The position numbers and the translations under genes are program-made. The notes beneath the pieces are model-generated. The model was not told the origin of the DNA. It did no database searches and saw only the letters and a program-made list of their open reading frames with translations. Below are positions 6,877-48,969 of a DNA stretch of 64,000 nucleotides, in pieces (within the stretch, counting starts at the first letter, position 1; the number at the start of each line of letters is the position of its first letter). Location of the stretch: the NCBI GenBank assembly GCA_945869265.1, contig CAMBOI010000007.1, positions 6,985 through 70,984 of the forward strand, in the 5' to 3' direction. The stretch is from an uncultured Prevotella sp. GTDB taxonomy: Bacteria; Bacteroidota; Bacteroidia; Bacteroidales; Bacteroidaceae.

Positions 6877-6902
6877 CACCGTTATTATGACAATATCAAT
6901 AT

Positions 6903-7967
6903 ATGATGAAGCAGATTATTATTATATTTGTCGCAGTTATCATGATGTGCCGTTGTGGCAGTCGAACAGGCAATAATGTCCAAGATGGTGGATATACAGG
7001 TGAGTTTCGTATAGAACATATCAATGGAATGACTCCTGTGAAAAACCAAGGTTTCGGTTCTGCATGTTGGGCATACGCCATGCTTGCTGCCATTGAGACT
7101 ACTCATATCTCTATGGGCGACTCGGTAAATCTCTCCCCCTCGTGGGCGATAAGGGCAATGATAAAGGAGTCGTACATGAGGAATGTGCTAAGTAGAGGTG
7201 GTGATAAGGGTAGCGTCAGGGCAACAGGCATGACCTTGTTGAATATCATCCAACGGCATGGTATTGTGCCCTATGATTCCTATCCCGACCGCGACGGAAA
7301 GGGCGTATCAACATCACTATTGCTCAACAAGACGAGGTTGATTGCTGAAAAAGCTGTTAATGCCCGCAAGGGCTATAACATTTATATGCCGTCACTTGTG
7401 GGAATGCTTGACGAAACCCTTGGTTATGGGCCGAAGAATGTGTATATGTTGGGAGCGCAATACACGCCGTTGGAGTTTGCCCATAGCGTGTGTCGTCCCG
7501 ACGAGTATATTGCCTTCGCGAGTTGCACCCATCATGCCTTTGGCAAGTGTTTTGACCTGGAAGTTGCTGATAACTGGGAGCACAACTTGTTTTATAATAT
7601 TCCTATAGACAAGCTTTTGTCATGTGTGGAAAAAGCAGTGCGTAGCGGTAGGGGAGTATGTTGGGAAGGCGACATCTCGGAACCAGGATTTAGTTTCAGC
7701 AGGGGGATAGCCTCTTTGGATATCCCTAAGGGTACTGATGTGCAACGTTTGCGACAGAAGATGATAGAATCATATACGACAACCGACGACCACTGTATGG
7801 CGATCGTCGGTATAGCCCGCAACAAAAGTGGGGAGAAATATTTTGTTATGAAAAACTCATGGGGCACAGACAATCCCTACGGAGGACTGATGTTTGTGTC
7901 GGCTGATTATCTGAGACTGAAGACCATTGCGGTTTTCCTTCCCCGCATATGCAATGATAAATATTAA
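6903..7967 (+). CDS. C1 (papain) family cysteine peptidase, lipoprotein-type signal
   Basis: NQGFGSACWAYAM (catalytic Cys context), DDHCMAIVG (His), KNSWG (Asn/Trp). N-terminal hydrophobic signal ending in Cys. Confidence 0.8.
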   Translation: MMKQIIIIFVAVIMMCRCGSRTGNNVQDGGYTGEFRIEHINGMTPVKNQGFGSACWAYAMLAAIETTHISMGDSVNLSPSWAIRAMIKESYMRNVLSRGGDKGSVRATGMTLLNIIQRHGIVPYDSYPDRDGKGVSTSLLLNKTRLIAEKAVNARKGYNIYMPSLVGMLDETLGYGPKNVYMLGAQYTPLEFAHSVCRPDEYIAFASCTHHAFGKCFDLEVADNWEHNLFYNIPIDKLLSCVEKAVRSGRGVCWEGDISEPGFSFSRGIASLDIPKGTDVQRLRQKMIESYTTTDDHCMAIVGIARNKSGEKYFVMKNSWGTDNPYGGLMFVSADYLRLKTIAVFLPRICNDKY

Positions 7968-32475: not shown

Positions 32476-33492
32476 TCAAAATCTTGTCATGAACTCTATT
32501 ACAAACTTGTCCTTCTCCGATGGTTTGGCAATGGCTCCCTCGCGATAGAAATATTTCTCGAAGTTGATGCGTATGTCGGAAACGAAGGGAGTGGCAAGAC
32601 TGAGAGTTACTCCAGCTGTCACACGATGACGCTCGTAGTCGGTGATATTGAATGAGCCGTCGTCGTTGATGGATGTACCGTCGCTATGGTCGCTCATGAA
32701 GTCGTAGCGTGCCAGTGGCGACACCTTCTTGATGAAGCTCTTCTTGCTCTTGGAGGGAATATCGTAGTTGATGAATCCGTCGAACGAGTGGACATCCGAG
32801 AACACACCGTTGCTATAGTGCTTGAAGAGATATTCTGCCTCGATATGCCATCCGCGAGAGTGCCAGTATGTGCCGGCATCATACATCATCACCGAATTGT
32901 CGGCAGGTGAAATCTTCTGTGTGCTCAATGTCACGTTGAAGCCCTCGGGCAGGAAGAACTGGGCTTTGGCCGAGAAGTTGATCTTCTTTGTCCAGTAGTT
33001 CTTCTGGTTGGTCAATCCCGAACCATTAAACAATCCTCCCTCAAGTATTACCGGAGACTTACCCTTGAACTTATATCCCAGCGATGCACCTACGTCGCGC
33101 ACGTTACCCACCTGCTTTGCAATGAACGAGCGGTTGGCGAAATATTGCTGATGGGGAGAGCGGTGGGCATCGATAGTGAATGGCACACGAAATTGTCCGA
33201 TGGTGAAGTTGAGATTATCCACAGGAGTAAGACGCGTATAGGCATCGAGCATCTTGATGTTGCCCTCGTCGGAAAGGTCAACCTCAGCCTTGTAGCTCAC
33301 AGCATCCACCACCTTTCCCGAGATACTGATGCGGGCGTTGCGCACCTCAAATCGGCCTTCGCCCTCCTCGGTTTGGTATTCATACTTGGCCCTCACTGTT
33401 CCGTGTATTTCGGGTGTGAATTCCGTTTTCTTCTCCTGAGCTCCGCACACAGTTGCTGTGGCGAGCATGGTTGCGATAAAAAATAGTTTCAT
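32476..33492 (-). CDS. outer-membrane porin (phosphate-selective porin O/P-like)
   Basis: Signal peptide MKLFFIATMLATATVCGAQ. RFEVRNARISISGKV....GQFRVPF pattern. Ends ...IEFMTRF. Start set to ATG 33492. A -7 box TAtcTTTG is on the minus strand at 33517-33524. Confidence 0.7.
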   Translation of the reverse strand: MKLFFIATMLATATVCGAQEKKTEFTPEIHGTVRAKYEYQTEEGEGRFEVRNARISISGKVVDAVSYKAEVDLSDEGNIKMLDAYTRLTPVDNLNFTIGQFRVPFTIDAHRSPHQQYFANRSFIAKQVGNVRDVGASLGYKFKGKSPVILEGGLFNGSGLTNQKNYWTKKINFSAKAQFFLPEGFNVTLSTQKISPADNSVMMYDAGTYWHSRGWHIEAEYLFKHYSNGVFSDVHSFDGFINYDIPSKSKKSFIKKVSPLARYDFMSDHSDGTSINDDGSFNITDYERHRVTAGVTLSLATPFVSDIRINFEKYFYREGAIAKPSEKDKFVIEFMTRF

Positions 33493-33601
33493 ATCGTTGC
33501 TTTGTTTTTTCGGGTGCAAAGATATGATATATATGTTACAAACGTGTTACAAGAATGATAAATTCCTGTAACATCATATTATTATTAAACACAACTTGTT
33601 A

Positions 33602-34567
33602 TTATTCTCTGTGCCTCTGAGTCTCTGTGTTCAATAATAACTTTTCCTTTACCACCGAGGTATTGTTGCGAGATACGGGGATGGGTTTGTCGGTACCGAA
33701 TATCTGCAGCTGATAGGCAGAGTTGCGATTAGACATCGACACGACGAAGTTGAGATTGACGATGAAGGCCCGATGACATTGCACCATAAACGGTTCGCCG
33801 CCAATGCTCTCCATAATCTGCTTGAGCGTGATTCGCATCATCTTGTGGCGCACCTCGTCTGATTCCATATAACATATATTGGCATAGTTGGACATCGACT
33901 CCACATATATTATATTAGAGGGTGGAAGAATGAGTGTGCTGTTGCCTGTGGCTCCCACTAGGTGGCATTGGCGCACTTCCTCGCAGGGAGTATTGTCGAT
34001 TGTTTCATCCTCCTTTTCTGTCTGTTCGGCAATGGCTTTCTGCCTTTCCTCAAGCAAGGCATTGATGGTGCGCACCTCTTCGAGCTGATGGCGAAGATGC
34101 CAGTTGCGGTTGCGCACGTAGGTGCCGATATACAGGAATATGCATGTGGCTGAGACGTAGTATATGTAGTCAAAGAAATAATCAAAGTGAAATTGTCCGC
34201 CATGCCACCATGGTTTGATGGGATTATTGCAGAAGAAGAATCCCCCGAAGAGGGTGAGCGCGAGGGCGAGGATGGGGATATTGATTATATAGTTGACGAT
34301 AGAGTTGCGATGTACAGTGTTGAGCGGCAACTTGGGGTCCATAGGCATGCGGAGGATGTGGGCAGTGAATAAACCGATAATCATACTGACCACAGTGGTG
34401 ATGACACTCTGTGCGAGGAAGAACAGAGGGCGACCTTCGTGGATAGTCTCGACATTGAATGGCATGGTGAGCCATAACAAAAGGAATACGAATATGCCGG
34501 CATACACACTTTCGTGTATGATGCGGATGTTTATTGGTTCTTTTAATTGTCTTTTCATCATCGTCAT
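33602..34567 (-). CDS. membrane-anchored LytTR-domain DNA-binding protein (no receiver domain), copy 1
   Basis: About 4 TM helices, coiled segment HQLEEVRTINALLEERQ, an acidic linker, and a C-terminal LytTR domain (IIYVESMSNYANICYM...QCHRAFIVNLNFV). Start set to ATG 34567 (MTMMKRQ), 17 nt downstream of a -7 box. Confidence 0.85.
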   Translation of the reverse strand: MTMMKRQLKEPINIRIIHESVYAGIFVFLLLWLTMPFNVETIHEGRPLFFLAQSVITTVVSMIIGLFTAHILRMPMDPKLPLNTVHRNSIVNYIINIPILALALTLFGGFFFCNNPIKPWWHGGQFHFDYFFDYIYYVSATCIFLYIGTYVRNRNWHLRHQLEEVRTINALLEERQKAIAEQTEKEDETIDNTPCEEVRQCHLVGATGNSTLILPPSNIIYVESMSNYANICYMESDEVRHKMMRITLKQIMESIGGEPFMVQCHRAFIVNLNFVVSMSNRNSAYQLQIFGTDKPIPVSRNNTSVVKEKLLLNTETQRHRE

Positions 34568-34584
34568 AATTTCAAATTCGACTG

Positions 34585-34652
34585 CAAAGATACACCATTT
34601 ATCCCACATTTCCAAACATTTGGGACAAATGGTAGGGATATGTGACGAATGG
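34585..34652 (-). promoter_or_regulatory. LytTR1 promoter with upstream CCATTCGTCACATATCC / TGTCCCA boxes
   Basis: The minus strand reads ccattcgtcacatatcc-N8-tgtccca-aatgTTTGg-N19-TAtcTTTGcagtcg. It aligns without gaps to the cassettes at 40875-40948 and 48365-48438. Confidence 0.6.
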
Positions 34653-34717
34653 AAGACGTAATATCCCATTTCCTCTGCCTTATATCCCTTGCTATTGCAC
34701 AATCCAAATATCCACCG

Positions 34718-34725
34718 TAACTTTG
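34718..34725 (+). promoter_or_regulatory. -7 promoter box TAacTTTG
   Basis: ccgTAACTTTGcaacgg lies 17 nt upstream of ATG 34743. Confidence 0.5.
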
Positions 34726-34742
34726 CAACGGAAAATTTTTAA

Positions 34743-36941
34743 ATGAACAAAGATATGACGACATTGAAATTATGTTTGACGGCACTCGCCGCAATGTTGG
34801 GAGTGGCAACAGCCATGGCCCAGACGGAGAAGAAGGACACGGTTGACTACTCGCTCAACCTGCAGGAGTTTGTGGTGAAATCCACTGCTCCGCGAACAAA
34901 GATTAGAAACGGTGCTATGGTCACTCGCATTGTGGGTTCGCCATTGGAGTCGGCGGGCTCGGTTGAGGACATGCTCTCGCGTGTGCCCGGTATGATGCGC
35001 ATGGGTGGTCAGTTGCAGGTGATAGGAAAGGGTTCACCTATTTATTATATTAACGGACGAAAGGTGCAGGACCTTGAGGAACTGAAAAGATTGAGAAGTC
35101 AGGATATACGTGAGGTGGAGGTAGTCAACAGTCCGGGAGCTGCATACGATGCATCGGTGAACGCCGTGGTGAAGATAAAGACGCGTCGTCAGCAGGGTGA
35201 GGGGCTCAGTGGACGATTTGACGTGAGCGACGAACAGGCATTGAAGTCGGGCAACAACAACCTGACGTCCACCCTCAATCTAAACTATCGCCATGAGGGA
35301 CTTGATTTCTTTGGCGGTGTGACATTCCAAAACGACTATCTCGATGGTTATAGGTCACTGCTCGAGCAGAACACATACCTCAAGCAGAATACAAACTCAA
35401 TTGTTTCCCATACCCAAACCGGATATACCCAATCCGACCAGAAATTCTCGCGTATGTTCTTCAATGCGGGAGTCAACTGGCAATTTGACGATGACAACTT
35501 CATTGGAGTGAAGTTGGAGAGAGGTGTATGGTTGAAAAACCGCTACTGGTTTGAGATGGAGGAAGACGTGCTGCGCAATGGTATGAAGGAGGATTACCTG
35601 AAGTCGGAGAGCGACATCAAATACCAAAATCCAAATACCCTGCTCGTGAATGCATATTACAATGGAAAGATAGGCAAATGGGGTATTGACGCCAATGTGG
35701 ATTACTACTCGCAATGTGACAAGAACGACAATCATGTCAACGAGCAGGCAATGTCGGGTATGCGCACCGTGGAGTCGATGACCGAGAACAAGAGCCACCT
35801 CTTTGCTGCGCGACTTATTGCCGAACATCCTCTATGGACAGGCAAACTGCAGTTGGGTGGCGAATTGACCACCGTGTGTCGCGACAATGACTATCGCATC
35901 AGCGGTGTGGATAATATCTTCGACAGGATGTCGAAGGTGAACGAGCAGAACTATGCCGCTTTCTTCGAATATGGCATCATGATACCCAAGGCAGGAATGT
36001 TGACACTCGGGATGAGATATGAACATGTGGCATTCGACTTCGACGACAAGACCGACCCAATGCGCTCGGTGAAGAGAAATCATGACGATTTCTTCCCCTC
36101 GTTGTCTTTTGGTACGCGACTCGGAGACTTGCAGATGCAACTAAGCTATGGCATAAAGACCACACGCCCGTCCTACTATCAGTTGAGAAGCGAAATCGAC
36201 TATAGCAGCAAATACACACTGCAGACGGGTAATCCTCTGTTGGAAAACGAGATACGCCACACCCTCGACCTTTCGGGACGATGGAAATGGATAGCCTTCA
36301 ATGTCAACTACCTGCATATCAAGGATGCCATATACGACTGGACAACGCCATACGACGACAATGGAGTGGTGATGATAGGTATGGTTAACTTCGACCGTCC
36401 CATCGACGTGTTCTGTGCTTTTGTGAATGTATCGCCCACAGTGGGAGTGTGGACCACGAGCAATACAGTGGGAGTGCAGAAGCAGTGGCTCTCGTTTAAT
36501 CTCGACGACCCGCGCGAGGCAACAGACAAGCGCCATGTCACTTACGATAAACCGATGCTGATATTCAATAGCGACAATGCCTTCAGACTGAAACACGACT
36601 GGCAGTTGGAACTCAACTCGCAATTTTATAGCAAAGCTCATTATCGCAACGTGAAACTGATGCAGGCTTATTGGAATCTGACTGCCGCAGTGCAGAAGTC
36701 ATTCCTCAAGGACAAGTCGCTCGTAGTGCGCCTCTCGGTGGCCGACATCTTCAATACTGCAAAGCAAGATGCCCTTCTCGATCTCGGCAACTATACGCTG
36801 TTGAAGGGCGACGTGTTCGGAGAGGGACGAGGCAACTACAGTTTCCATCGAGTTTCACTCTCGGTGCGCTATGCCTTCAACGCCACCAAGAGCAAATATA
36901 AGGGCAAAGGAGCAGGACAGGATGTGATCAAGCGATTGTAG
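34743..36941 (+). CDS. TonB-dependent-receptor-like outer-membrane beta-barrel protein, copy 1
   Basis: Signal peptide, plug-like N-terminus (LQEFVVKS..., IYYINGRKVQDLEEL, VEVVNSPGAAYDAS), a long beta-barrel, and C-terminal tail FNATKSKYKGKGAG. Confidence 0.8.
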   Translation: MNKDMTTLKLCLTALAAMLGVATAMAQTEKKDTVDYSLNLQEFVVKSTAPRTKIRNGAMVTRIVGSPLESAGSVEDMLSRVPGMMRMGGQLQVIGKGSPIYYINGRKVQDLEELKRLRSQDIREVEVVNSPGAAYDASVNAVVKIKTRRQQGEGLSGRFDVSDEQALKSGNNNLTSTLNLNYRHEGLDFFGGVTFQNDYLDGYRSLLEQNTYLKQNTNSIVSHTQTGYTQSDQKFSRMFFNAGVNWQFDDDNFIGVKLERGVWLKNRYWFEMEEDVLRNGMKEDYLKSESDIKYQNPNTLLVNAYYNGKIGKWGIDANVDYYSQCDKNDNHVNEQAMSGMRTVESMTENKSHLFAARLIAEHPLWTGKLQLGGELTTVCRDNDYRISGVDNIFDRMSKVNEQNYAAFFEYGIMIPKAGMLTLGMRYEHVAFDFDDKTDPMRSVKRNHDDFFPSLSFGTRLGDLQMQLSYGIKTTRPSYYQLRSEIDYSSKYTLQTGNPLLENEIRHTLDLSGRWKWIAFNVNYLHIKDAIYDWTTPYDDNGVVMIGMVNFDRPIDVFCAFVNVSPTVGVWTTSNTVGVQKQWLSFNLDDPREATDKRHVTYDKPMLIFNSDNAFRLKHDWQLELNSQFYSKAHYRNVKLMQAYWNLTAAVQKSFLKDKSLVVRLSVADIFNTAKQDALLDLGNYTLLKGDVFGEGRGNYSFHRVSLSVRYAFNATKSKYKGKGAGQDVIKRL

Positions 36942-37830
36942 AGGGATTCTTAATCCTTTCCTTCACTTCGGCAGAATACTGCTTCGACACCAGTACGGTG
37001 TCATTGCCATACTGCATGACAAGTGCTATGCCACTGTTGCGACTCTCAACCTTTGCCACATGGCGCAGGTTGACGATGTAAGCACGGTGGCATTGCATTA
37101 TATATGACTGACGGCAGAGCAATTCCGACACATTCTTCATGCTCGTGCGAATAAGCATGTTGTTGGGCTTGTCGTCAATAATATAATATATGTTCACGTA
37201 GTTGCCCTCGGAGGTGGCAAATATCACTTGCGACGGACGCACATCAAGCGATTCCTTGGTGGCTCCGCTGATATTTATCACGGCATCGTCGTCGGCAGGA
37301 GTGGGAGAGATGGCGTCATTCGTCTGTGGTTCTGGCTGAGCCTCACGACGTTGTCTCTCCTGGAGCATACCATTGAGCAGTTGGGCTTCCTCGAGTTGAC
37401 GGATGAGATAGCGTTTTTTATACACACTGCGCCAATATACGTGTATCACTACCGTGGTGAAACAGTTGACCGCAATAACATAGCCGAGGGTTTGCCAACT
37501 GTAGTGGTTGTCAACTGTGGCGTTGTTGGCGAATGCATCAAGGAAGATGCACATTAATATCACGCTGAGAAATATATTGAGCGTCTCAAAGCGTATGTTG
37601 CGCTTGATGATATACTTGCTGCCGCGGGATATGTCGTTTGGCATACGGAATAGTTTCTCTACTGTCAGTTCGCTAATCAATACGCAAAACGCAATGATGA
37701 GCCCTAATCCTGCAAGCAGGGCCCATCTTATCCACCCGAAATGGTTGAGGCCGAAGGGTAGGAATACAGAGATGAAGAGAATGGCTATTAACGCACTCTG
37801 GAGTCTTTCTTTGATAATGGTTGTTTTCAT
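36928..37830 (-). CDS. membrane-anchored LytTR-domain DNA-binding protein (no receiver domain), copy 2
   Basis: Same architecture as copy 1 (4 TM, RQLEEAQLLNGMLQERQ, LytTR: VIFATSEGNYVNIYYI...QCHRAYIVNLRHV). Start set to ATG 37830 (MKTTIIKERL), 8 nt after a -7 box TActTTTG (minus strand, 37839-37846). The track start at 37860 is TTG. Confidence 0.8.
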   Translation of the reverse strand: MKTTIIKERLQSALIAILFISVFLPFGLNHFGWIRWALLAGLGLIIAFCVLISELTVEKLFRMPNDISRGSKYIIKRNIRFETLNIFLSVILMCIFLDAFANNATVDNHYSWQTLGYVIAVNCFTTVVIHVYWRSVYKKRYLIRQLEEAQLLNGMLQERQRREAQPEPQTNDAISPTPADDDAVINISGATKESLDVRPSQVIFATSEGNYVNIYYIIDDKPNNMLIRTSMKNVSELLCRQSYIMQCHRAYIVNLRHVAKVESRNSGIALVMQYGNDTVLVSKQYSAEVKERIKNPSTIA

Positions 37831-37903
37831 AAGCTCTGCAAAAGTACTAATTATTTTCAATATGTGGCTTTTTCTTTAGTTTTTTTAGCCAAAAATTTAT
37901 TCC

Positions 37904-37956
37904 ATTCGTCCCATTTTTTAGCTTTTCGTCACATTTTCAGCCTTTTCATCACATTT
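37904..37956 (+). promoter_or_regulatory. three direct repeats TTCGTCCCATTTT / TTCGTCACATTTT / TTCATCACATTTT with exact 20-bp phase
   Basis: Repeat starts are at 37904, 37924 and 37944, in the orientation of barrel gene 2, within the LytTR2/barrel2 divergent intergenic region. Confidence 0.6.
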
Positions 37957-38068
37957 TTGTCGATATATTGCAGCAAATCGTATTTTCTTAACGTCAAAAG
38001 GACGAAAACAAAATGAATATCGCATTTTTTGAGATTTATAAAGAATAAACATAATAATTGAAAAGAAT

Positions 38069-40222
38069 ATGAAAGCAAAAATGATGATTATGGCTGCAAT
38101 GATGATTATGATGACATCGGCAGCAGATGCACAGACAGAAAAGAAGTTGACCAACTTCAACGACACCACTTTCACTCTGAATGAGGTGACAGTGAAAAGC
38201 AGTTTGCCTAAATCGAGGGTGAAGGGCGACGCTATGCGCACTATTGTCAACGGCACTATCCTCGAGAAGGCTGGTAAGGCTACCGACGTGCTCAACCGCA
38301 TACCACAGCTCAAAGCCGACAAGGACGGTGGCGTGGAGGTGTTCGGACGTGGTGGTGCCGAGGTGTATATCAATGGCAGAAAGGTGCAGGACATGAAGGA
38401 ACTCACCCGCATCTCTTCGGAGCAGATCAAGAGTGTGGATGTGGTGCAGAATCCCGGCGCCCGCTATGCCGCAAGCGTGAAGGCTGTGGTTAGGATTCAG
38501 TTGAAGAAGGCTCAGGGCGAGGGATTCAGTTTCAGGGAGAATCTTGGCACTCAATATCAGTATGGTCCGGCCATCAGCAACAACCTCGACCTCAACTATC
38601 GTGTGGGCGGGCTCGACATCACGGGTTCGTTCTGGTGTGGCTCATACAACAGTTATAAGTCATATCAGAAAAATGACCTAACATATTATGCCGGTAATGA
38701 CTTATATGTGGGTCATAGCAATCAGAACATGAAGAACAAGTGGAGCGCATGGTCGCCACAGCTGCAGGTGAACTATATGTTTGACGATAATCACTCGATA
38801 GGTGCGTTCTACAAATACGACCGACATCCGAAGGATAGCTATGACGGATGGTTGCACACCGACACCTACGAGAACGGCAAATTCCTGGAGCGCTCGGAGA
38901 GCGACATCTTCAGACACACATCATCCAAGAAGCATATCTTCAATGCTTATTATAATGGTAAGGTGGGAAAACTCGGTATCGACTTCAATATCGACGGACT
39001 CTTCGATGATGTCAACGACCCCAACGGCACCACCGAGACTACTATCGACCCTGAAGGCAACAAGACGATGCGCACTGTGGATAATCTCACTCTCAGCGGC
39101 AATAACTTCTGGGCCACAAAGCTCATCTTCACCTATCCCGTGCTCAAGGGAAATCTCTCGGTGGGAGGCGAATATAGCCACAACAACCGTAAGGATGCCT
39201 ACTCATACGAGACAACGGAGACATTGCCCATGAATGCTACTGACAACAAAATCAAGGAGACGGCAACATCGGCTTTCGTGGAATATGGAAGACAGTTTGG
39301 ACGTGTCTTTGCACAGGTGGGATTGAGATATGAGAATATCTGCAACGACTACTACAACTTCGGCATAAAGGAGCAGGACGTGAGCCGGTCCTATGGCGAC
39401 TGGTTCCCCACGGCTGTAGTGGCTATGCCTATCGGAAAATGGCAGTTGAGCCTTTCCTACCGCAAGGACATCAAGCGACCGGCTTACGACCAACTCACAA
39501 GCTCTACCTTATATATTAATAAATACACTTATCAGACGGGTAATCCCTATCTGAAACCGACATATACGCACAATGTGGTGTTGAATGTGGCTTACAAGGC
39601 ATTTAGTGTGATGATCGACTATGCCCGCACGAAGGACGTGGTTACTCTGCTCACCGAACCTTATCCCGGAAGTGAAGACCCCCTGCTCAGTATCTTACAC
39701 CCCAAAAACTGCTCGGATGGATATGACAAACTCGTTGTCATGCCGTCGTATAAGCCAACTATCGGTAAGTGGCACCCAATGTGGTCGGCTGGGCTGGTGA
39801 TGCAGAACTACAAGACGTTGACTGCCAACGGTACGGAGAAGACGATGAACCATCCGTTTGTGCAGGTGCAGTGGAACAACGACATCGAATTGCCTAAGGG
39901 ATTCCGCGTTAATGCCTTTATGCAATATATCAGCAAAGGCGACTATGACAACTTCCGCATGTCAACCGAGGCGTTCAATGTATCTGTAGGTGTGCAGCGC
40001 GATTTCCATCTCAAGGCTCTCGGAACACTTACTGCCGACATCCGTTGCAATGACATCTTCAATACCAATAAGACTGGTACCACTGTATATGGCATACGCG
40101 AACTGACCATAGAAAACCGTGCCCGTAGAGTGTTCTCGCTCGACCTCACCTGGAAGTTCAATGAGGCTCGAAGCAAGTATAAGGGCACAGGAGCCGGTAA
40201 GAGTCAGAAAGCCAGAATGTAG
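38069..40222 (+). CDS. TonB-dependent-receptor-like outer-membrane beta-barrel protein, copy 2
   Basis: Paralog of 34743-36941: VYINGRKVQDMKEL, VDVVQNPGARYAAS, C-terminal FNEARSKYKGTGAG. Confidence 0.8.
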   Translation: MKAKMMIMAAMMIMMTSAADAQTEKKLTNFNDTTFTLNEVTVKSSLPKSRVKGDAMRTIVNGTILEKAGKATDVLNRIPQLKADKDGGVEVFGRGGAEVYINGRKVQDMKELTRISSEQIKSVDVVQNPGARYAASVKAVVRIQLKKAQGEGFSFRENLGTQYQYGPAISNNLDLNYRVGGLDITGSFWCGSYNSYKSYQKNDLTYYAGNDLYVGHSNQNMKNKWSAWSPQLQVNYMFDDNHSIGAFYKYDRHPKDSYDGWLHTDTYENGKFLERSESDIFRHTSSKKHIFNAYYNGKVGKLGIDFNIDGLFDDVNDPNGTTETTIDPEGNKTMRTVDNLTLSGNNFWATKLIFTYPVLKGNLSVGGEYSHNNRKDAYSYETTETLPMNATDNKIKETATSAFVEYGRQFGRVFAQVGLRYENICNDYYNFGIKEQDVSRSYGDWFPTAVVAMPIGKWQLSLSYRKDIKRPAYDQLTSSTLYINKYTYQTGNPYLKPTYTHNVVLNVAYKAFSVMIDYARTKDVVTLLTEPYPGSEDPLLSILHPKNCSDGYDKLVVMPSYKPTIGKWHPMWSAGLVMQNYKTLTANGTEKTMNHPFVQVQWNNDIELPKGFRVNAFMQYISKGDYDNFRMSTEAFNVSVGVQRDFHLKALGTLTADIRCNDIFNTNKTGTTVYGIRELTIENRARRVFSLDLTWKFNEARSKYKGTGAGKSQKARM

Positions 40223-40307: not shown

Positions 40308-40631
40308 ATGATTATGATAGTAACAACAACGCCCACTATTGAGGGGCATCCAATTAGAGAGTATAAGGGTTTGGTGACTGGTGAAACCATCATTGGCGCC
40401 AACTTCGTGAAGGACTTCTTTGCCGGCATCCGCGATATCGTAGGCGGACGCAGTGGCTCATACGAGAGCGTATTGCGCGAGGCCAAAGACATAGCATTGC
40501 GCGAGATGCAGGAGCGTGCACAGATGATGGGAGCCAATGCTGTCGTAGGTGTCGATCTCGACTATGAGGCCCTTGGTGCCAATGGTTCGATGCTGATGGT
40601 TACGGCAAGCGGTACTGCAGTAGTGATATAA
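40308..40631 (+). CDS. YbjQ/UPF0145 family protein
   Basis: 107 aa: [24 protein letters not shown]...GGRSGSYE... Confidence 0.8.
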
Positions 40632-40862: not shown

Positions 40863-40948
40863 CATGCTCGTCGTTTCGTCACATATCCTTGCTTTCTGTC
40901 CCAGTTATTTGGTATATTGTCATATTTACACTACCTTTGCAGTCGCAA
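40863..40948 (+). promoter_or_regulatory. promoter cassette R, copy 1
   Basis: 40875-40948 matches 48365-48438 at 72 of 74 positions. It contains TTTCGTCACATATCC, TGTCCCA, a -33 TTTG and a -7 TAccTTTG (40932-39). ATG 40963 lies 23 nt downstream. Confidence 0.7.
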
Positions 40949-40962
40949 AATCAATTTTTATT

Positions 40963-41979
40963 ATGATGAAGAAAGTTTTATATGTATTGCTGCCGCAGTT
41001 TGCGGAACATGAGTTGCCTTATCTCACCCAACCATTGCGCTCAGATGCCATGGCAATGAAAGAGGATCCGAAGTATGAGAACAAGATTGTGGCTGAATCA
41101 ATGGATCCCGTTGAGGCTATCAGCGGTTTCCGCATACTGCCCGATTATACCTTTAATAATATTCCCGACGATTATGCAGCACTAGTGCTCATCGGAGGAT
41201 ACAGTTGGAAGAGTGAGGCAGCTGAGCGAGTAAAGCCTCTTGTTGCCGATGCTATCAGCAAGGGGCGCATAGTCGGTGCCATCTGCAATGCCGCCTCATG
41301 GATGGCGAGCAAGGGATTCCTCAACGATGTCCGCCACACTGGCAATGGCATTGAGCAGTTGCAGCTGTGGGGTGGGGAGACATACACCAATGCCGCCGGC
41401 TATGTCAACGCACAGGCAGTGAGCGACAAGAATATCGTTACGGCAAATGGCAGTGCCAGCCTTGAGTTTGCATGCGAGATACTCACCTTGCTCAAAAACG
41501 ACGAGCCAAAGGAAATACAGATGTACAAGACGTTCTACAAAACGGGGCTCGTGGAGTTTGCTAAGATGATGTCGCAGGCGAAACCGCGTTTCACGTTCAA
41601 CACCATTGGCCTCTTTACCACCGACAATGCCAAGATGGTGGCTTTCTATCGCGACATCTTCGGATTTGAGACTGAGTGGAATGGAGTAGAGCCAAATGTA
41701 GAGATGACACTTGGCACATCACGTATCATCATGTTCCCCCGCGACGCATTCGAGCAGATGACATCTCGTGAGTATGCCTATCCCAACGGCACCAATGGCA
41801 CTTTGGAACTGTCCTTCGATGTCCCAACGTTTGCCGATGTTGACAAGGAGTATGACCGTGCCGTAAGCATGGGAGCAAAGCCAATATTCGCTCCTACGAC
41901 AGAGCCATGGGGACAACGCACCTGCTATGTGGCTGACCCGGAAGGCAACTTGATAGAGATATCGTCGTTTATTAAATAA
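40963..41979 (+). CDS. DJ-1/PfpI-family domain fused to VOC (glyoxalase/bleomycin-resistance) domain
   Basis: The N-terminal half has ALVLIGG...GRIVGAICNAASWMA (DJ-1/PfpI nucleophile-elbow Cys context). The C-terminal half has FTFNTIGLFT...EPWGQRTCYVADPEGNLIEI (VOC fold). Start set to ATG 40963. Confidence 0.7.
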   Translation: MMKKVLYVLLPQFAEHELPYLTQPLRSDAMAMKEDPKYENKIVAESMDPVEAISGFRILPDYTFNNIPDDYAALVLIGGYSWKSEAAERVKPLVADAISKGRIVGAICNAASWMASKGFLNDVRHTGNGIEQLQLWGGETYTNAAGYVNAQAVSDKNIVTANGSASLEFACEILTLLKNDEPKEIQMYKTFYKTGLVEFAKMMSQAKPRFTFNTIGLFTTDNAKMVAFYRDIFGFETEWNGVEPNVEMTLGTSRIIMFPRDAFEQMTSREYAYPNGTNGTLELSFDVPTFADVDKEYDRAVSMGAKPIFAPTTEPWGQRTCYVADPEGNLIEISSFIK

Positions 41980-44885: not shown

Positions 44886-44923
44886 CATGTTGTGTCATGC
44901 CATTCGTCACATATCCTTGCTTT
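44886..44923 (+). repeat. truncated (5' 38 bp) copy of promoter cassette R
   Basis: catgttgtgtcatgccattcgtcacatatccttgcttt is identical to 48348-48385. Similarity stops abruptly at 44924. Confidence 0.9.
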
Positions 44924-45110: not shown

Positions 45111-45317
45111 AAAGCTAATAAATCATAAAAGTTGCCGAAAGGTTTGGCTGTTTCATTTTTATTTCTTACTTTTACACCGACATTGGCAAGTGGCCAACTC
45201 GTTTGGGCTTCTGTCCCAATAGAGTTTGGATCCGCATTTGTCTCTATTTTTCCGTAGAAAGGAATACAACAGATGTTTCTCGTACGGCCACTATCTTCAT
45301 ACATCAATTTTAACACT

Positions 45318-46757
45318 ATGAGACATATAACCAAACTACAATGGGGAATCATTGGAATGCTGGGCATCTTGCTTCCATATTCAATGGGAATAGCAGCGGA
45401 AACAGTTGCGGATTCCTCCCTGAAACCACGGATTGTCGTACTGACGGATATTGCACCGACTGACGTTGAACCCGATGACATGGAATCAATGGTCCGCCTG
45501 CTGGCCCATGCTGACCTTTATGAAATAGAGGGACTGATTGCGACAGGAGGATGGAACATCTGCGGGAGAACTTATCCGGACGAATGGATGGGAAACATGC
45601 AGAAAGTAATTAATGCTTACGACGAGGATCTACCGAATCTAATGAAACGATCCGGACAAAAGGGTTTCCTGCCAGTAGAAAAGGAAGCCGGCAAACAAAC
45701 GTTGGGTTATTGGCCAAGTGCTGCCTATTTGCGTAGCAGGACTGCATTTGGCAGCAGAGATTTAGGCGTAACCAAACTTGGAGAGGAGAATAGCTCACAA
45801 GGTAGCAAAATGATTATCGACCTAGTTGACGAAAAGGACGACCGTCCCTTATGGGTCTTGGTTTGGGGCGGTGCAAATACACTGGCTCAAGCGATATGGA
45901 CTGTCAGGCAGAATCGAAGCGAAACGGAAGTTATAAAGTTTCTGAATAAGTTGTGTGTTTATACAATTACAGACCAAGATGTATGCGGAGGTCCCCCTGT
46001 GGATTATGCCTTCAGTTCTCATCAATGGATCCGCAAGACTTGCGGCAAGGATATCCGCTTTTTCTGGGACGAAAGCGCTTGGATCGTGCAGAACTACATA
46101 GGAAGCCAGAATTGGAACGAATACGCAACTCATATACAAAATCACGGGAATCTAGGGAAAATATATCCGAAAAACAAATACGGAGTGGAAGGCGACACTC
46201 CTTCTTTCCTACATGTAACCCCAAATGGATTAAACGATCCGACCGTATGTAGCCAGACAGGTTGGGGTGGCTATTTCCGATGGGGACTGTCACCAGACAG
46301 TCTGACAACATGCTACACAAATGCAGATCCGGCAGTCAGATACATATCGGAGAAATATGAAAAATACTTCTATCCCGCAATATTCGCCAACTTCATAGCA
46401 CGTATGGATTGGGCTGCATACGGCAAAGGAAACCGTAACCCGATAGTCATCGTAAACGGTAAAAAGGGATTGAGTCCGATTATAATTGAACCAGAAACAG
46501 AAGAGGAACTCCAGTTAAACGCTTCAGAATCTGCGGACCCGGATAAAGATACACTGACTTTCCATTGGTGGATATTGCCGGAAGCGGGTACTTACACCTC
46601 AACGGTAAGTATCAGAGAGGCAGACAAAGCTAATGCCTTTCTACGTATCCCCCAGGATGCGGCAGGAAAAGAATTGCATATAATCTGTGAAGTGACAGAC
46701 AATGGGACTCCGGCACTGACTAGTTACAGAAGGGTCATCATCCGCCCAAAACGATGA
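45318..46757 (+). CDS. DUF1593-like secreted protein (nucleoside-hydrolase-like fold + Ig-like C-terminus)
   Basis: Signal peptide, then RIVVLTDIAPTDVEPDDMESMVRLLAHADLYEIEGLIATGGWN, typical of DUF1593. Start set to ATG 45318. Codon usage differs from neighbours by eye. Confidence 0.65.
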   Translation: MRHITKLQWGIIGMLGILLPYSMGIAAETVADSSLKPRIVVLTDIAPTDVEPDDMESMVRLLAHADLYEIEGLIATGGWNICGRTYPDEWMGNMQKVINAYDEDLPNLMKRSGQKGFLPVEKEAGKQTLGYWPSAAYLRSRTAFGSRDLGVTKLGEENSSQGSKMIIDLVDEKDDRPLWVLVWGGANTLAQAIWTVRQNRSETEVIKFLNKLCVYTITDQDVCGGPPVDYAFSSHQWIRKTCGKDIRFFWDESAWIVQNYIGSQNWNEYATHIQNHGNLGKIYPKNKYGVEGDTPSFLHVTPNGLNDPTVCSQTGWGGYFRWGLSPDSLTTCYTNADPAVRYISEKYEKYFYPAIFANFIARMDWAAYGKGNRNPIVIVNGKKGLSPIIIEPETEEELQLNASESADPDKDTLTFHWWILPEAGTYTSTVSIREADKANAFLRIPQDAAGKELHIICEVTDNGTPALTSYRRVIIRPKR

Positions 46758-46801: not shown

Positions 46802-48301
46802 ATGAAAAAGAAAAACATTCAGACCCCCGTTTTATCAATAGTCATTGCTGCATGTATGATATCTCACCAGCAAAATGCGCGGGCCGGAGAAAATCCGTCC
46901 CTGCAAAATGATTCCGTGCCTTATGTAACCATGCCGGACGTTTCCCCTAAACTCACCACAGGATATGGAAATCCCCTGCTGGATTTTATGTTTACAGCGG
47001 ATCCAACTGCAGTAGAATATAAAGGCAGACTTTATGTGTACGCAACAAACGATCAGCAACAATATGAGACAATAGGCGGTTACGGAAAAAACTCCTACGA
47101 ATACATCAAATCTCTGGTGATGATGTCTACCGATGACATGACAAACTGGACCTATCACGGAATTATTAAAACAGACAGCATCGCCCCATGGATAAAAACA
47201 TCATGGGCACCGTCAGTCACAAAACGTGAGGAAGCGGACGGCAAGACTCACTTCTACCTCTATTTCTCCAATAGCGGGGATGGAACCGGAGTGCTGACAT
47301 CCACATCCCCCATAGGACCGTGGTCAAGCCCGCTGAATCATAGTTTGGTAGATACAAACACTCCCGGCATAGCAGGAGAATGCAAAGCCGCTTTCGATCC
47401 GGGTGTAGTCATCGATGACAAAGGAAAAGGTTGGCTGACAGTAGGCGGAGGATGTGCTCGCATTATGCGTTTGGGAAAAGACATGATTAGTGTGGATGGC
47501 CCGATAACCCCCATCAAGGCTCCCCATCATTTCGAAGCTAACGAATTAAACTACATCAACGACACATACGTTTATACTTATAACATAGATTGGCAAGATT
47601 TTAGCGACTGGCCTCTCCCGACAGAGAAACCAACCATCTGTTGCATGAGTTACATGACTAGCAAGACTCCGCAGGTAAGCGAAAGTTGGCAATACCAGCA
47701 CAACTATATGAAAAACCCTGGAGAATATGGATTTGACTTCAGCAACAATCATACACATTTGCACAAATACCGCGGGAAATGGTATGTAATCTATCACACA
47801 ATGAGTTTGCAACATAGTTTCAATACAACAGCTGGTTTTCGTAATGTTTGTGTCGATGAAATACAAATTGACGAAAATACTGTGAACATCCACATGGGTA
47901 ATCAGACTCTGAAAGGCGTAAAACAGATACAGCCTATGAATCCGTTCATCATCCAGCAGGCCGAAACCACAGCAGCCACACAAGGCGTCAAGTTCACAAA
48001 TGGAAAAAGCATCGGGGACATGTATGCCGTTACCGTTCCCAACAAGACTGGCATCATTGCTGTCAGAGGTGTGGAATTCAACAAAGTACCTTCCAGTCTG
48101 GAAATTAAGGCATCCGGAAACGGAATCATAGAAGTCCGCCGGGATAGGCCGGACGGAGAAGTCATAGCTTCAATCAAAGTCGGTACCCCGCAAATGAAAC
48201 TCATAGAATCCCAACTTCAAAAGAATATGACAGGCACAATGGACCTCTGTTTTATCCTGAAAGGAAACAATATCACATTCGACGAATGGCAGTTCAAATG
48301 A
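46802..48301 (+). CDS. glycoside hydrolase family 43 with C-terminal carbohydrate-binding module
   Basis: Signal peptide. GNPLLDFMFTADPTAVEYKGRLYVYATND (GH43 N-terminal catalytic Asp context), WAPSV, and a CBM6-like C-terminal ~130 aa. Confidence 0.8.
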   Translation: MKKKNIQTPVLSIVIAACMISHQQNARAGENPSLQNDSVPYVTMPDVSPKLTTGYGNPLLDFMFTADPTAVEYKGRLYVYATNDQQQYETIGGYGKNSYEYIKSLVMMSTDDMTNWTYHGIIKTDSIAPWIKTSWAPSVTKREEADGKTHFYLYFSNSGDGTGVLTSTSPIGPWSSPLNHSLVDTNTPGIAGECKAAFDPGVVIDDKGKGWLTVGGGCARIMRLGKDMISVDGPITPIKAPHHFEANELNYINDTYVYTYNIDWQDFSDWPLPTEKPTICCMSYMTSKTPQVSESWQYQHNYMKNPGEYGFDFSNNHTHLHKYRGKWYVIYHTMSLQHSFNTTAGFRNVCVDEIQIDENTVNIHMGNQTLKGVKQIQPMNPFIIQQAETTAATQGVKFTNGKSIGDMYAVTVPNKTGIIAVRGVEFNKVPSSLEIKASGNGIIEVRRDRPDGEVIASIKVGTPQMKLIESQLQKNMTGTMDLCFILKGNNITFDEWQFK

Positions 48302-48347: not shown

Positions 48348-48438
48348 CATGTTGTGTCATGCCATTCGTCACATATCCTTGCTTTCTGTCCCAATTATTT
48401 GGTATATTATCATATTTACACTACCTTTGCAGTCGCAA
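48348..48438 (+). promoter_or_regulatory. promoter cassette R, copy 2 (full length)
   Basis: CCATTCGTCACATATCC (48362-78), TGTCCCA (48387-93), -33 TTTG (48398-401), -7 TAccTTTG (48422-29). ATG 48451 lies 21 nt downstream. Confidence 0.7.
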
Positions 48439-48450
48439 TAATAATATTGA

Positions 48451-48969
48451 ATGATGAAGACAGAAAGAATAACCCTTCGTCCTTGGCTTGACACTGATGC
48501 CAAGGCTTTGTATAAATACGCTCGCGACCCGGAGGTGGGGCCGCGAGCAGGTTGGCCTCCTCATTTTTCTGAGGAGGAGAGCCTGGAAATAATTCGCACC
48601 GTGTTTAACAATCCCACCACATGGGCTATCGTATGGAATGAGACTGGCGAGGCAATAGGAGCCATGGGCTACGGTCCGTCGTGCGAATGCTCTCTCCCTG
48701 CTCGGGAAGGTGAACCCACGGTGGGCTATTGGGTGGGCAAACCGTATTGGGACAAGGGTATCTGCACAGAGGCTCTTCGACTGATGATAACGCATATCCG
48801 CAATACAACTGACATCAAGTCTCTCATCAGCGGACATTTCATCAGCAACCCAGCTTCGGGACGAGTGATGGAGAAGTGTGGATTCATGCCAACTGGCGAA
48901 ACTGCCTTTGACAATAAACTCTATCAAGGTGCTGACAAACCGATAAGGGTAATGAGATTGACTTTTTAA
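48451..48969 (+). CDS. GNAT family N-acetyltransferase (RimJ/RimL-like)
   Basis: TERITLRPWLDTDAKALYKYARDPEVG...GYWVGKPYWDKGICTEA. Confidence 0.8.
   Translation: MMKTERITLRPWLDTDAKALYKYARDPEVGPRAGWPPHFSEEESLEIIRTVFNNPTTWAIVWNETGEAIGAMGYGPSCECSLPAREGEPTVGYWVGKPYWDKGICTEALRLMITHIRNTTDIKSLISGHFISNPASGRVMEKCGFMPTGETAFDNKLYQGADKPIRVMRLTF

Follow-up and report, generated by a model that had tools for sequence, protein, structure and literature searches.

Receiver-less, membrane-anchored LytTR regulators adjoining PF14905 outer-membrane barrels in Prevotella, with a conserved predicted repeat and promoter module

Introduction

HigX (CCNA_03131) of Caulobacter crescentus is a transmembrane (TM) LytTR transcription factor that acts from the membrane and requires its TM domain; it possesses four TM helices in a compact bundle without a periplasmic domain, followed by a low-complexity linker and a C-terminal LytTR domain (PMC13384398). 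Its chromatin immunoprecipitation sequencing (ChIP-seq) targets belong to envelope and transport functions, with one site close to the gene of a TonB-dependent receptor, and higX itself is SOS-induced and lies beside higBA in some strains (PMC13384398). In HdrRM and BrsRM of Streptococcus mutans, as outlined in PMC13384398, a receiver-less LytTR factor is sequestered by a small membrane protein with three to four TM helices and no periplasmic domain. CoxC of Afipia carboxidovorans is a CO-responsive MHYT-LytTR one-component regulator of the neighbouring operon (PMC11347149). One-component membrane-anchored transmembrane transcription regulators are a recognised class (PMC10269533), and the first LytTR survey had already pointed to members anchored in the membrane (Nikolskaya and Galperin 2002, as cited in PMC13384398 and PMC10269533). 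Here, we describe a 64-kb stretch of Prevotella DNA, hereafter the window, which carries two regulator genes of such architecture, LytTR1 and LytTR2, each divergent from a gene encoding a PF14905 outer-membrane barrel (barrel1 and barrel2). We hold it somewhat probable that these membrane-anchored LytTR regulators activate their own genes, the barrels and a few stress genes.

Prevotella and Segatella rank among the dominant bacteria of gut and rumen, and to our knowledge hardly any transcription factor of theirs has been characterised. A first-pass annotation of the window, made from the sequence alone, had read the locus as the tandem duplication of a unit that may act in trans-envelope signalling and had known of no characterised counterpart. 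That last statement holds for the pairing with a barrel and fails for the architecture, since HigX (PMC13384398) and CoxC (PMC11347149) are known membrane LytTR factors. Our literature search (PF14905; LytTR with Bacteroidetes, Prevotella or TonB; membrane-bound LytTR) returned no description of the Bacteroidales family or of its barrel pairing. The architecture is thus already characterised elsewhere, while the LytTR1/2 family, the barrel pairing and the operator code reported below appear to be undescribed.

Architecture of the two regulators

All four open reading frames (ORFs) were confirmed where the first-pass annotation had placed them, and its account of the regulators was borne out by Pfam, by hydropathy and by an AlphaFold2 model of LytTR1. 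In each regulator, four predicted TM helices and a long helix are joined through an acidic linker to the LytTR domain, and a single receiver-less protein thereby unites membrane domain and LytTR output. LytTR1 (33602-34567, minus strand, 321 aa) carries the LytTR domain (PF04397) at residues 211-310 with an E-value of 5e-13, and LytTR2 (36928-37830, minus strand, 300 aa) carries it at residues 197-293 with an E-value of 6e-14; the scores of 49.5 and 52.6 bits, respectively, compare with a Pfam gathering cut-off of 22.6 bits. The start codon of LytTR1, an ATG at 34567, is backed by the alignment of homologs and by a predicted -7 box 17 nt upstream. In the Pfam scan, no receiver domain (Response_reg) was matched in either regulator and no sensor family in the TM region of either. 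The sole NCBIfam match was BtsR, which is confined to the LytTR part and scores 28-33 bits against a cut-off of 246. LytTR1 and LytTR2 share 27% identity along their entire length (E 1e-30), and the helix segment quoted in the first-pass annotation aligns between them.

The AlphaFold2 model of LytTR1, built with 18 homologs as input, has a predicted local distance difference test score (pLDDT) of 80.5 and places helices at residues 11-33, 46-70, 82-113 and 129-189, followed by a disordered acidic stretch at 189-197 (pLDDT <50) and then the LytTR beta domain. Foldseek matched this beta domain to 3d6w, ComE and AgrA (3d6w, 4cbv and 4g4k at probability 1.00, TMt 0.70-0.76) and matched the TM bundle to no solved structure. 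According to hydropathy and the positive-inside rule, and for LytTR1 also the AlphaFold2 model, both regulators are predicted to span the membrane four times with both termini inside and the LytTR domain in the cytoplasm. By hydropathy and the positive-inside rule, their periplasmic loops would be 8-13 residues each; the conserved loop 2 (MPxDPxLPLxxVHRNS) is predicted to be cytoplasmic. With TM helices and a cytoplasmic DNA-binding domain in one polypeptide, both regulators belong, by prediction, to the one-component transmembrane transcription regulators. Their TM domain forms a narrow family: phmmer with LytTR1 residues 1-160 found 19 clusters (50% identity) among 1.84 billion representative proteins, the matches being proteins of ~300 aa, and a LytTR domain was present in 8 of the 10 longest ones scanned.

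The barrels and their C-terminal tail

The divergent partners, barrel1 (34743-36941, plus strand, 732 aa) and barrel2 (38069-40222, plus strand, 717 aa), match PF14905 with E-values of 3e-52 and 5e-61 (178.6 and 207.4 bits, cut-off 27), and barrel1 additionally matches PF00593 (E 8e-14). They are 31% identical (E 3e-93) and have YINGRKVQD and the tail SKYKGxGAG in common. Their earlier designation as TonB-dependent-like agrees with the PF14905 assignment and with the AlphaFold2 model of barrel1 (49 sequences, pLDDT 83.8, predicted template-modelling score 0.80), which Foldseek aligned end to end with the TonB-dependent transporters (TBDTs) ChuA, Cir, PhuR, PfeA, FepA, FecA and BtuB over ~700-790 columns, at E-values of 5e-21 to 1e-16. 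As modelled, barrel1 is a protein of the TBDT fold with a 22-stranded barrel. Sequence and profile searches of the barrel against the PDB found no relative, and fold comparison alone succeeded. As the homolog search with barrel1 gave 97-100% identical sequences only, a distant barrel (L033; compared loci and barrel proteins are labelled L and P, respectively) was used as the query for the alignment.

The Pfam Plug family (PF07715) scored 20.5 bits in barrel2, below the cut-off of 23.9, and had no match in barrel1. In the model, residues ~52-150 of barrel1 form a mixed alpha/beta plug-like domain, and the full-length structural alignments include the plug region, so a plug is supported only at the level of the predicted fold. 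The STN domain defines TonB-dependent transducers; the Pfam scan found no match to it (PF07660) in the N-terminus of either barrel. A signal peptide is present in barrel1, and about 25 residues separate the barrel signal peptide from a conserved motif before the plug, LxEVVVKS (with variants QEFVVKS, as in barrel1, and NEVTVKS), which is TonB-box-like by sequence resemblance.

The C-terminal tail of barrel1 is KSKYKGKGAGQDVIKRL. Almost all barrels of the subfamily, down to 24% identity, end in this tail (FNxxKSKYKGxGAGxxxxxRM) whichever neighbour they have, be it an extracytoplasmic function (ECF) sigma/FecR pair, a PadR-PspC set or none, so that the tail characterises a large PF14905 subfamily as a whole rather than this particular locus. 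The first-pass annotation was right that the two barrels share both termini, with a plug supported at the fold level only; the tail it had called unusual is family-wide. For the same reason a role of the tail as a regulator-specific docking peptide was ruled out. The tail KSKYKGxGAGxxxxxR[ML] (36870-36941 and 40150-40222) follows the last predicted beta-strand and has low model confidence; given that position, the barrel does not end in the usual terminal aromatic residue.

Conservation of the pairing

One genome per species was scanned with the alignment of LytTR1 homologs, which led to the identification of 46 loci in Prevotella, Segatella, Hoylesella, Mediterranea, Rikenellaceae and metagenome-assembled genomes (MAGs) of other Bacteroidales. 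A PF14905 barrel adjoins the LytTR1-type gene in all 28 loci with sufficient flanking DNA, divergently in 27 of them and convergently in one (L019), whose arrangement is also found in a shorter sister contig (L018). Linkage between the LytTR1-type regulator and a PF14905 barrel is tight, and the genes that flank such pairs vary among loci. No third conserved gene of the module was found (a 267-aa gene after the barrel in L003 is not general), nor was a protease gene conserved beside the pairs. Identity to LytTR1 tracks identity to barrel1 (Spearman 0.89, n=24), a correlation that shared phylogeny alone could cause. In two loci, the partner barrel is split into two ORFs (L004:5679-7840 and L017:3488-5681), for which a frameshift, a pseudogene or a sequencing error is possible.

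In the reverse test, a metagenome scan with the barrel alignment, a divergent LytTR gene was present at 8/8 barrels at least 44% identical to barrel1, and a LytTR gene was nearby at only 4/72 barrels of 33-40% identity. One distant barrel relative with a faint STN match (P0349) adjoins genes for FecR and an ECF sigma factor. The contexts of other distant barrels were a DUF4252/ECF-sigma operon, a PspC-PadR-PspC set, one divergent LytTR gene and, in three cases, no obvious regulator nearby. The conservation of the pairing in other genomes, on which the first-pass reading depended, was thus observed from both directions; the notion that regulator and barrel are locked together stands for the LytTR1 type and does not extend to LytTR2, which four sister genomes keep without barrel2.

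Repeats and promoters between the divergent genes

The divergent intergenic regions were aligned in a common orientation, and a repeat matrix (position weight matrix, PWM) was trained on such regions. A sigma-70 promoter scanner was not used because Bacteroidetes promoters depart from the sigma-70 consensus. The alignment contains a repeat element of ~12 bp with the consensus TGGGAYRAAWGG, phased 20-22 bp across loci, and the repeat arrays are flanked by Bacteroidetes-type -7 boxes (TAnnTTTG, the published Bacteroides -7 consensus) for both divergent genes.

Between LytTR1 and barrel1 lies a putative operator array of six TGGGAYRAAWGG-type repeats (34594-34691), with PWM matches at 34594, 34619, 34632, 34639, 34656 and 34677. 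Two repeats face the barrel1 promoter and two the LytTR1 promoter, with a phasing of 20-21 bp; of the remaining two, one overlaps the LytTR1-facing pair, and one is oppositely oriented beside the LytTR1 -7 box. The predicted -7 boxes of LytTR1 (TATCTTTG, 34585-34592, minus strand) and barrel1 (TAACTTTG, 34718-34725, plus strand) each lie 29 nt downstream of the proximal repeat. The two predicted promoters are exact mirror images, each consisting of two repeats 20-21 bp apart, the proximal one 29 nt before the -7 box. This array is the sole cluster of at least three matrix matches in the window (0.02 expected in shuffles), and its conservation extends over orthologous and distant loci, reaching from Prevotella as far as Rikenellaceae-level MAGs. 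In Segatella intergenic regions, tandem repeats of ~35 nt and ~20 nt flank the operator array (L021:6512-6700 and 6900-6991; L022:201-330).

This geometry was formulated as a composite pattern (repeat, 19-22 nt, repeat, an allowed gap of 24-34 nt, TAnnTTTG) and searched for in 680 kb comprising the loci and the window. The pattern occurs 46 times, against 0 in 20 shuffles, and the gap between repeat and box is 28 or 29 nt in every occurrence. It recurs upstream of barrel and LytTR genes in metagenome loci outside the matrix training, and nearly all loci carry it at the LytTR gene itself. L043-L049, which hold another, barrel-less membrane-LytTR family, lack it, as do most barrels that have no LytTR gene beside them.

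At the second pair, LytTR2 has a predicted -7 box (TACTTTTG, 37839-37846, minus strand), and three direct repeats, AATGGGACGAATGGA, AATGTGACGAAAAGC and AATGTGATGAAAAGG, are located at 37901-37955 (listed on the minus strand) with a spacing of 20 bp, oriented toward barrel2.

Further promoter copies and a candidate regulon

Two further copies of the composite promoter are present in the window. One, with two repeats, 29 nt and TACCTTTG (40873-40939, plus strand), is located upstream of a gene encoding a DJ-1/PfpI-glyoxalase fusion (40963-41979), and the other (48362-48429, plus strand) precedes a GNAT gene (48451-48969) that has DUF3237 and FMN_red genes behind it. In both copies, 29 nt separate the proximal repeat from the predicted -7 box (40932-40939 and 48422-48429, plus strand). 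The two copies are 93% identical over 84 nt (40875-40958 and 48365-48448), and a 41-nt stretch of the GNAT copy shows 83% complementarity to the LytTR1 promoter. A partial copy of 38 nt with one repeat (44886-44923, plus strand) is identical to 48348-48385. The 3.4-kb block between the 38-nt copies contains a Sde182-like gene (45273-46757) and a GH43/CBM6 gene (46802-48301), and it appears to stem from an insertion into the promoter or from recombination there.

In other genomes, the module precedes genes of small LiaF-like_C membrane proteins, located between the LytTR gene and the barrel (L086:7711-8271 and L095:2176-2742). The LiaF-like_C family (PF09922) is one that we take to belong to the response to cell-wall antibiotics, and its place under the composite promoter hints at an envelope-stress role. 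The module was also found upstream of CBAH (L054, L088), CAT (L054), FMN reductase (L089) and PNPOx-like (L093) genes. In L054 (3500-11900), a barrel without a LytTR neighbour sits amid beta-lactamase, glyoxalase, CBAH, Acyl_transf_3, CAT, DUF418 and GNAT genes, beside a NikA-like mobilisation gene, and the cluster may be a mobile resistance or detoxification island. Judged from their domains, the predicted targets would have envelope, xenobiotic or electrophile stress as their common theme rather than nutrient catabolism.

Origin of the second pair and neighbouring genes

The partners of the barrel2 orthologs (58-72% identical) in L003, L021 and L022 are LytTR1-like regulators, with 42-49% identity to LytTR1 and only 23-26% to LytTR2, from which it follows that the unit did not arise by plain duplication in situ. 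LytTR2 orthologs occur in L007, L008, L012, L024, L037 and L040, and in four sister Prevotella genomes (L008, L012, L024 and L037) the LytTR2-barrel1-LytTR1 trio is kept and barrel2 is missing. L012 and L024 have a YbjQ gene on the far side of the LytTR2 upstream region, where the window has barrel2 first. L012 has kept the repeats, and a perfect leftward composite promoter at the same position faces YbjQ-DinB; the composite promoter of L024 faces away from LytTR2 toward YbjQ-GNAT. The tandem duplication of a two-gene unit proposed in the first-pass annotation was consequently discarded, as a simple in-place duplication is ruled out by the partner swap, the variable presence of barrel2 and the paralog identity of 27-31%. 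The partner swap and the variability of barrel2, together with the state of L040, lead to another view of the second pair, in which a barrel seems either to have entered a pre-existing divergent LytTR2/YbjQ unit or to have been lost from it. In L040, a Prevotella MAG, most of barrel1 and LytTR1 residues 1-242 are deleted, barrel2 is in fragments and LytTR2 is intact (400-2000), which is either module decay or an assembly artefact.

The YbjQ-family gene of the window (40308-40631, plus strand; Pfam YbjQ_1, E 8e-41) is probably co-transcribed with barrel2. The domain scan of the surrounding genes gave porin O/P, NfeD, SPFH, YbjQ, the DJ-1/PfpI-glyoxalase fusion, DinB_2 and Acyl_transf_3. No histidine kinase, sigma factor or FecR gene was found among the genes neighbouring the two pairs, in line with the earlier statement that the regulators lack both a receiver domain and an adjacent kinase. 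LytTR1 is directly followed downstream by the gene of a phosphate-selective porin of the O/P family (32476-33519) and LytTR2 by the convergent barrel1, and neither is followed by a separate membrane-inhibitor gene. The porin-NfeD-SPFH synteny is also present in L040, and the porin gene has no composite promoter. The 3' ends of barrel1 (plus strand) and LytTR2 (minus strand) overlap by 14 nt (36928-36941), and the overlap or tight packing is kept in L007, L008, L012 and L037; such an overlap leaves no space for a terminator and makes antisense interference possible. The nearest genome locus belongs to Prevotella sp. P5-50, whose LytTR1 and barrel1 orthologs each have 95% protein identity.

Proposed mechanism and alternatives

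From the domain architecture, the predicted folds, the gene linkage and the conserved repeat geometry, we infer that LytTR1 and LytTR2 would act as one-component transmembrane transcription regulators with a four-helix bundle in the inner membrane. The long helix would probably serve as a dimerisation element, and the acidic flexible linker would hold the LytTR domain at the cytoplasmic face. AgrA and ComE sites are direct repeats spaced about two helical turns upstream of the promoter, and the LytTR domains of the present regulators may likewise bind the tandem TGGGAYRAAWGG elements 20-21 bp apart. The repeats would lie at about -40 and -60 from the start, positions that fit activation. As the mirror-image promoters share one array, the regulator would control both its own gene and the divergent barrel. 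The same module would drive the DJ-1/glyoxalase and GNAT-DUF3237-FMN reductase genes in the window and LiaF-like, CBAH, CAT and FMN-reductase genes elsewhere, and this sharing suggests that the barrel does not act as a co-sensor but is itself regulated, as one target of a small regulon for envelope or xenobiotic stress. The signal, whatever its nature, would probably be sensed within the membrane or at its cytoplasmic face.

Several points weigh against this mechanism. An importer-like transporter is hard to explain in a detoxification-type regulon. The barrel2 side offers, in place of a canonical box, only a degenerate -7 box (TATTTTCT) ~28-29 nt downstream of the repeats, and repeats are missing from the DNA immediately upstream of LytTR2 in L008, L024 and L037. 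In the distant loci L027-L029, all repeats are oriented toward the barrel, so that LytTR autoregulation there would require another geometry. Intergenic regions of this kind had served to train the matrix, and independence from that training can be claimed solely for the 29-nt spacing, the additional sites and the metagenome loci. The putative -7/-33 assignment follows the published Bacteroides consensus rather than mapped starts, and the repeats could be recognised by some factor other than the LytTR proteins. This last point can be carried further: the repeats might belong to another regulator or be a generic promoter feature, with the LytTR proteins acting on unrelated genes and the adjacency reflecting co-inheritance. 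LytTR binding to the repeats is indeed deduced, and L054, L088, L089 and L093 have the promoter and no LytTR gene within 4-5 kb. However, nearly all loci have the promoter at the LytTR gene, the loci of the other membrane-LytTR family and the majority of barrels with no LytTR gene beside them lack it, and the 20-21-bp direct-repeat geometry is that known for LytTR domains, which together make such an explanation highly improbable.

The trans-envelope signalling envisaged in the first-pass annotation, in which the barrel binds an extracellular ligand and relays it across the periplasm to the LytTR protein in the manner of FecA-FecR-FecI, can draw on an adjacency that is very tight and old, on barrels with a conserved periplasmic C-terminal tail and a TonB-box-like N-terminus, and on the faint-STN relative beside FecR and an ECF sigma factor, which indicates that the family is usable in signalling. 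Nevertheless, the paired barrels have neither STN nor any other N-terminal signalling domain, regulator loops of 8-13 residues (at most 13) provide nothing comparable to the FecR periplasmic domain, and the tail is also present in barrels with quite different neighbours or none. Moreover, LytTR2 survives without barrel2, barrels and regulators have swapped partners, and the promoter code reaches cytoplasmic enzymes; the analogy is not supported, and we regard this relay as very unlikely. An induction loop without contact between the two proteins, in which a hydrophobic or membrane-partitioning compound enters through the barrel, is bound by the four-helix bundle and thereby sets up positive feedback, would make use of the TBDT fold and of divergent promoters on one operator array, and a bundle with no periplasmic domain is well fitted to a ligand within the membrane, for which BcrR is a precedent cited in PMC13384398. 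No substrate can be inferred for it, however, the remaining predicted targets encode enzymes of a detoxification type and not catabolic functions, and LytTR2 orthologs are paired with a YbjQ operon and no barrel, so that we consider such a loop unlikely. The TM bundle might instead keep the LytTR domain inactive, as a fused version of HdrRM or BrsRM, until stress-dependent cleavage in the acidic linker frees the activator. A disordered acidic linker does lie between the helix and the LytTR domain, and LytTR regulatory systems that act by membrane sequestration are cited in PMC13384398; yet no protease gene is conserved beside the pairs, and HigX, the closest characterised architecture, needs its TM domain for activity instead of being inhibited by it, which renders release by cleavage quite unlikely. 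Finally, the 4-TM LytTR family could be the master regulator of a hitherto unrecognised membrane-sensed stress regulon, with two TGGGAYRAAWGG elements 29 nt before the -7 box as its promoter code and with the barrel coupled to sensing, where the barrel might deliver the inducer to the inner membrane or signal via its periplasmic tail. We think this combination doubtful; if true, it would constitute a new route from the outer membrane to transcription that is independent of STN and sigma factors.

Under the mechanism that we favour, with the barrel as a target, the locus would yield a regulator family, its near-obligate target in an uncharacterised TBDT-like branch, and a precise predicted operator and promoter architecture. 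It would also yield a candidate detoxification and envelope-stress regulon including DJ-1/glyoxalase, GNAT, FMN reductase, LiaF-like, CBAH and CAT genes. It would be the second, independent example after HigX of a LytTR factor working while membrane-bound, and it would give a first functional handle on PF14905 barrels, without involving a new signalling principle.

Comparison with known systems

The sets of FecA-FecR-FecI and of Bacteroidetes SusC-like proteins with anti-sigma and ECF sigma factors resemble the pairs described here in that a protein of the TBDT fold is encoded beside an inner-membrane regulator gene. Unlike FecA sets, the present pairs have no STN, no FecR-like periplasmic domain and no sigma/anti-sigma pair, and their output is a LytTR domain. 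AgrA and ComE share the LytTR fold with LytTR1 (Foldseek TM ~0.75), and the predicted direct-repeat operators and autoregulation are alike; in contrast to these two, LytTR1 and LytTR2 are membrane-anchored and have no receiver domain, histidine kinase or peptide pheromone genes. CoxC is similar in fusing a membrane domain to LytTR, but its sensor is MHYT, whereas the TM region of LytTR1 and LytTR2 matches no Pfam sensor family.

HigX has the same 4TM-linker-LytTR architecture as LytTR1 and LytTR2, compared by description, and it is an alphaproteobacterial protein for which no conserved divergent barrel and no repeat/promoter code have been reported. Since phmmer with the LytTR1 TM domain found a narrow family only, TM homology to HigX is not detectable in that search, in which the HigX sequence itself was not directly compared. 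HdrRM and BrsRM are two-protein systems of Firmicutes that are concerned with bacteriocin and competence genes, whereas LytTR1 and LytTR2 combine both parts in one fused protein and are linked to an outer-membrane barrel.

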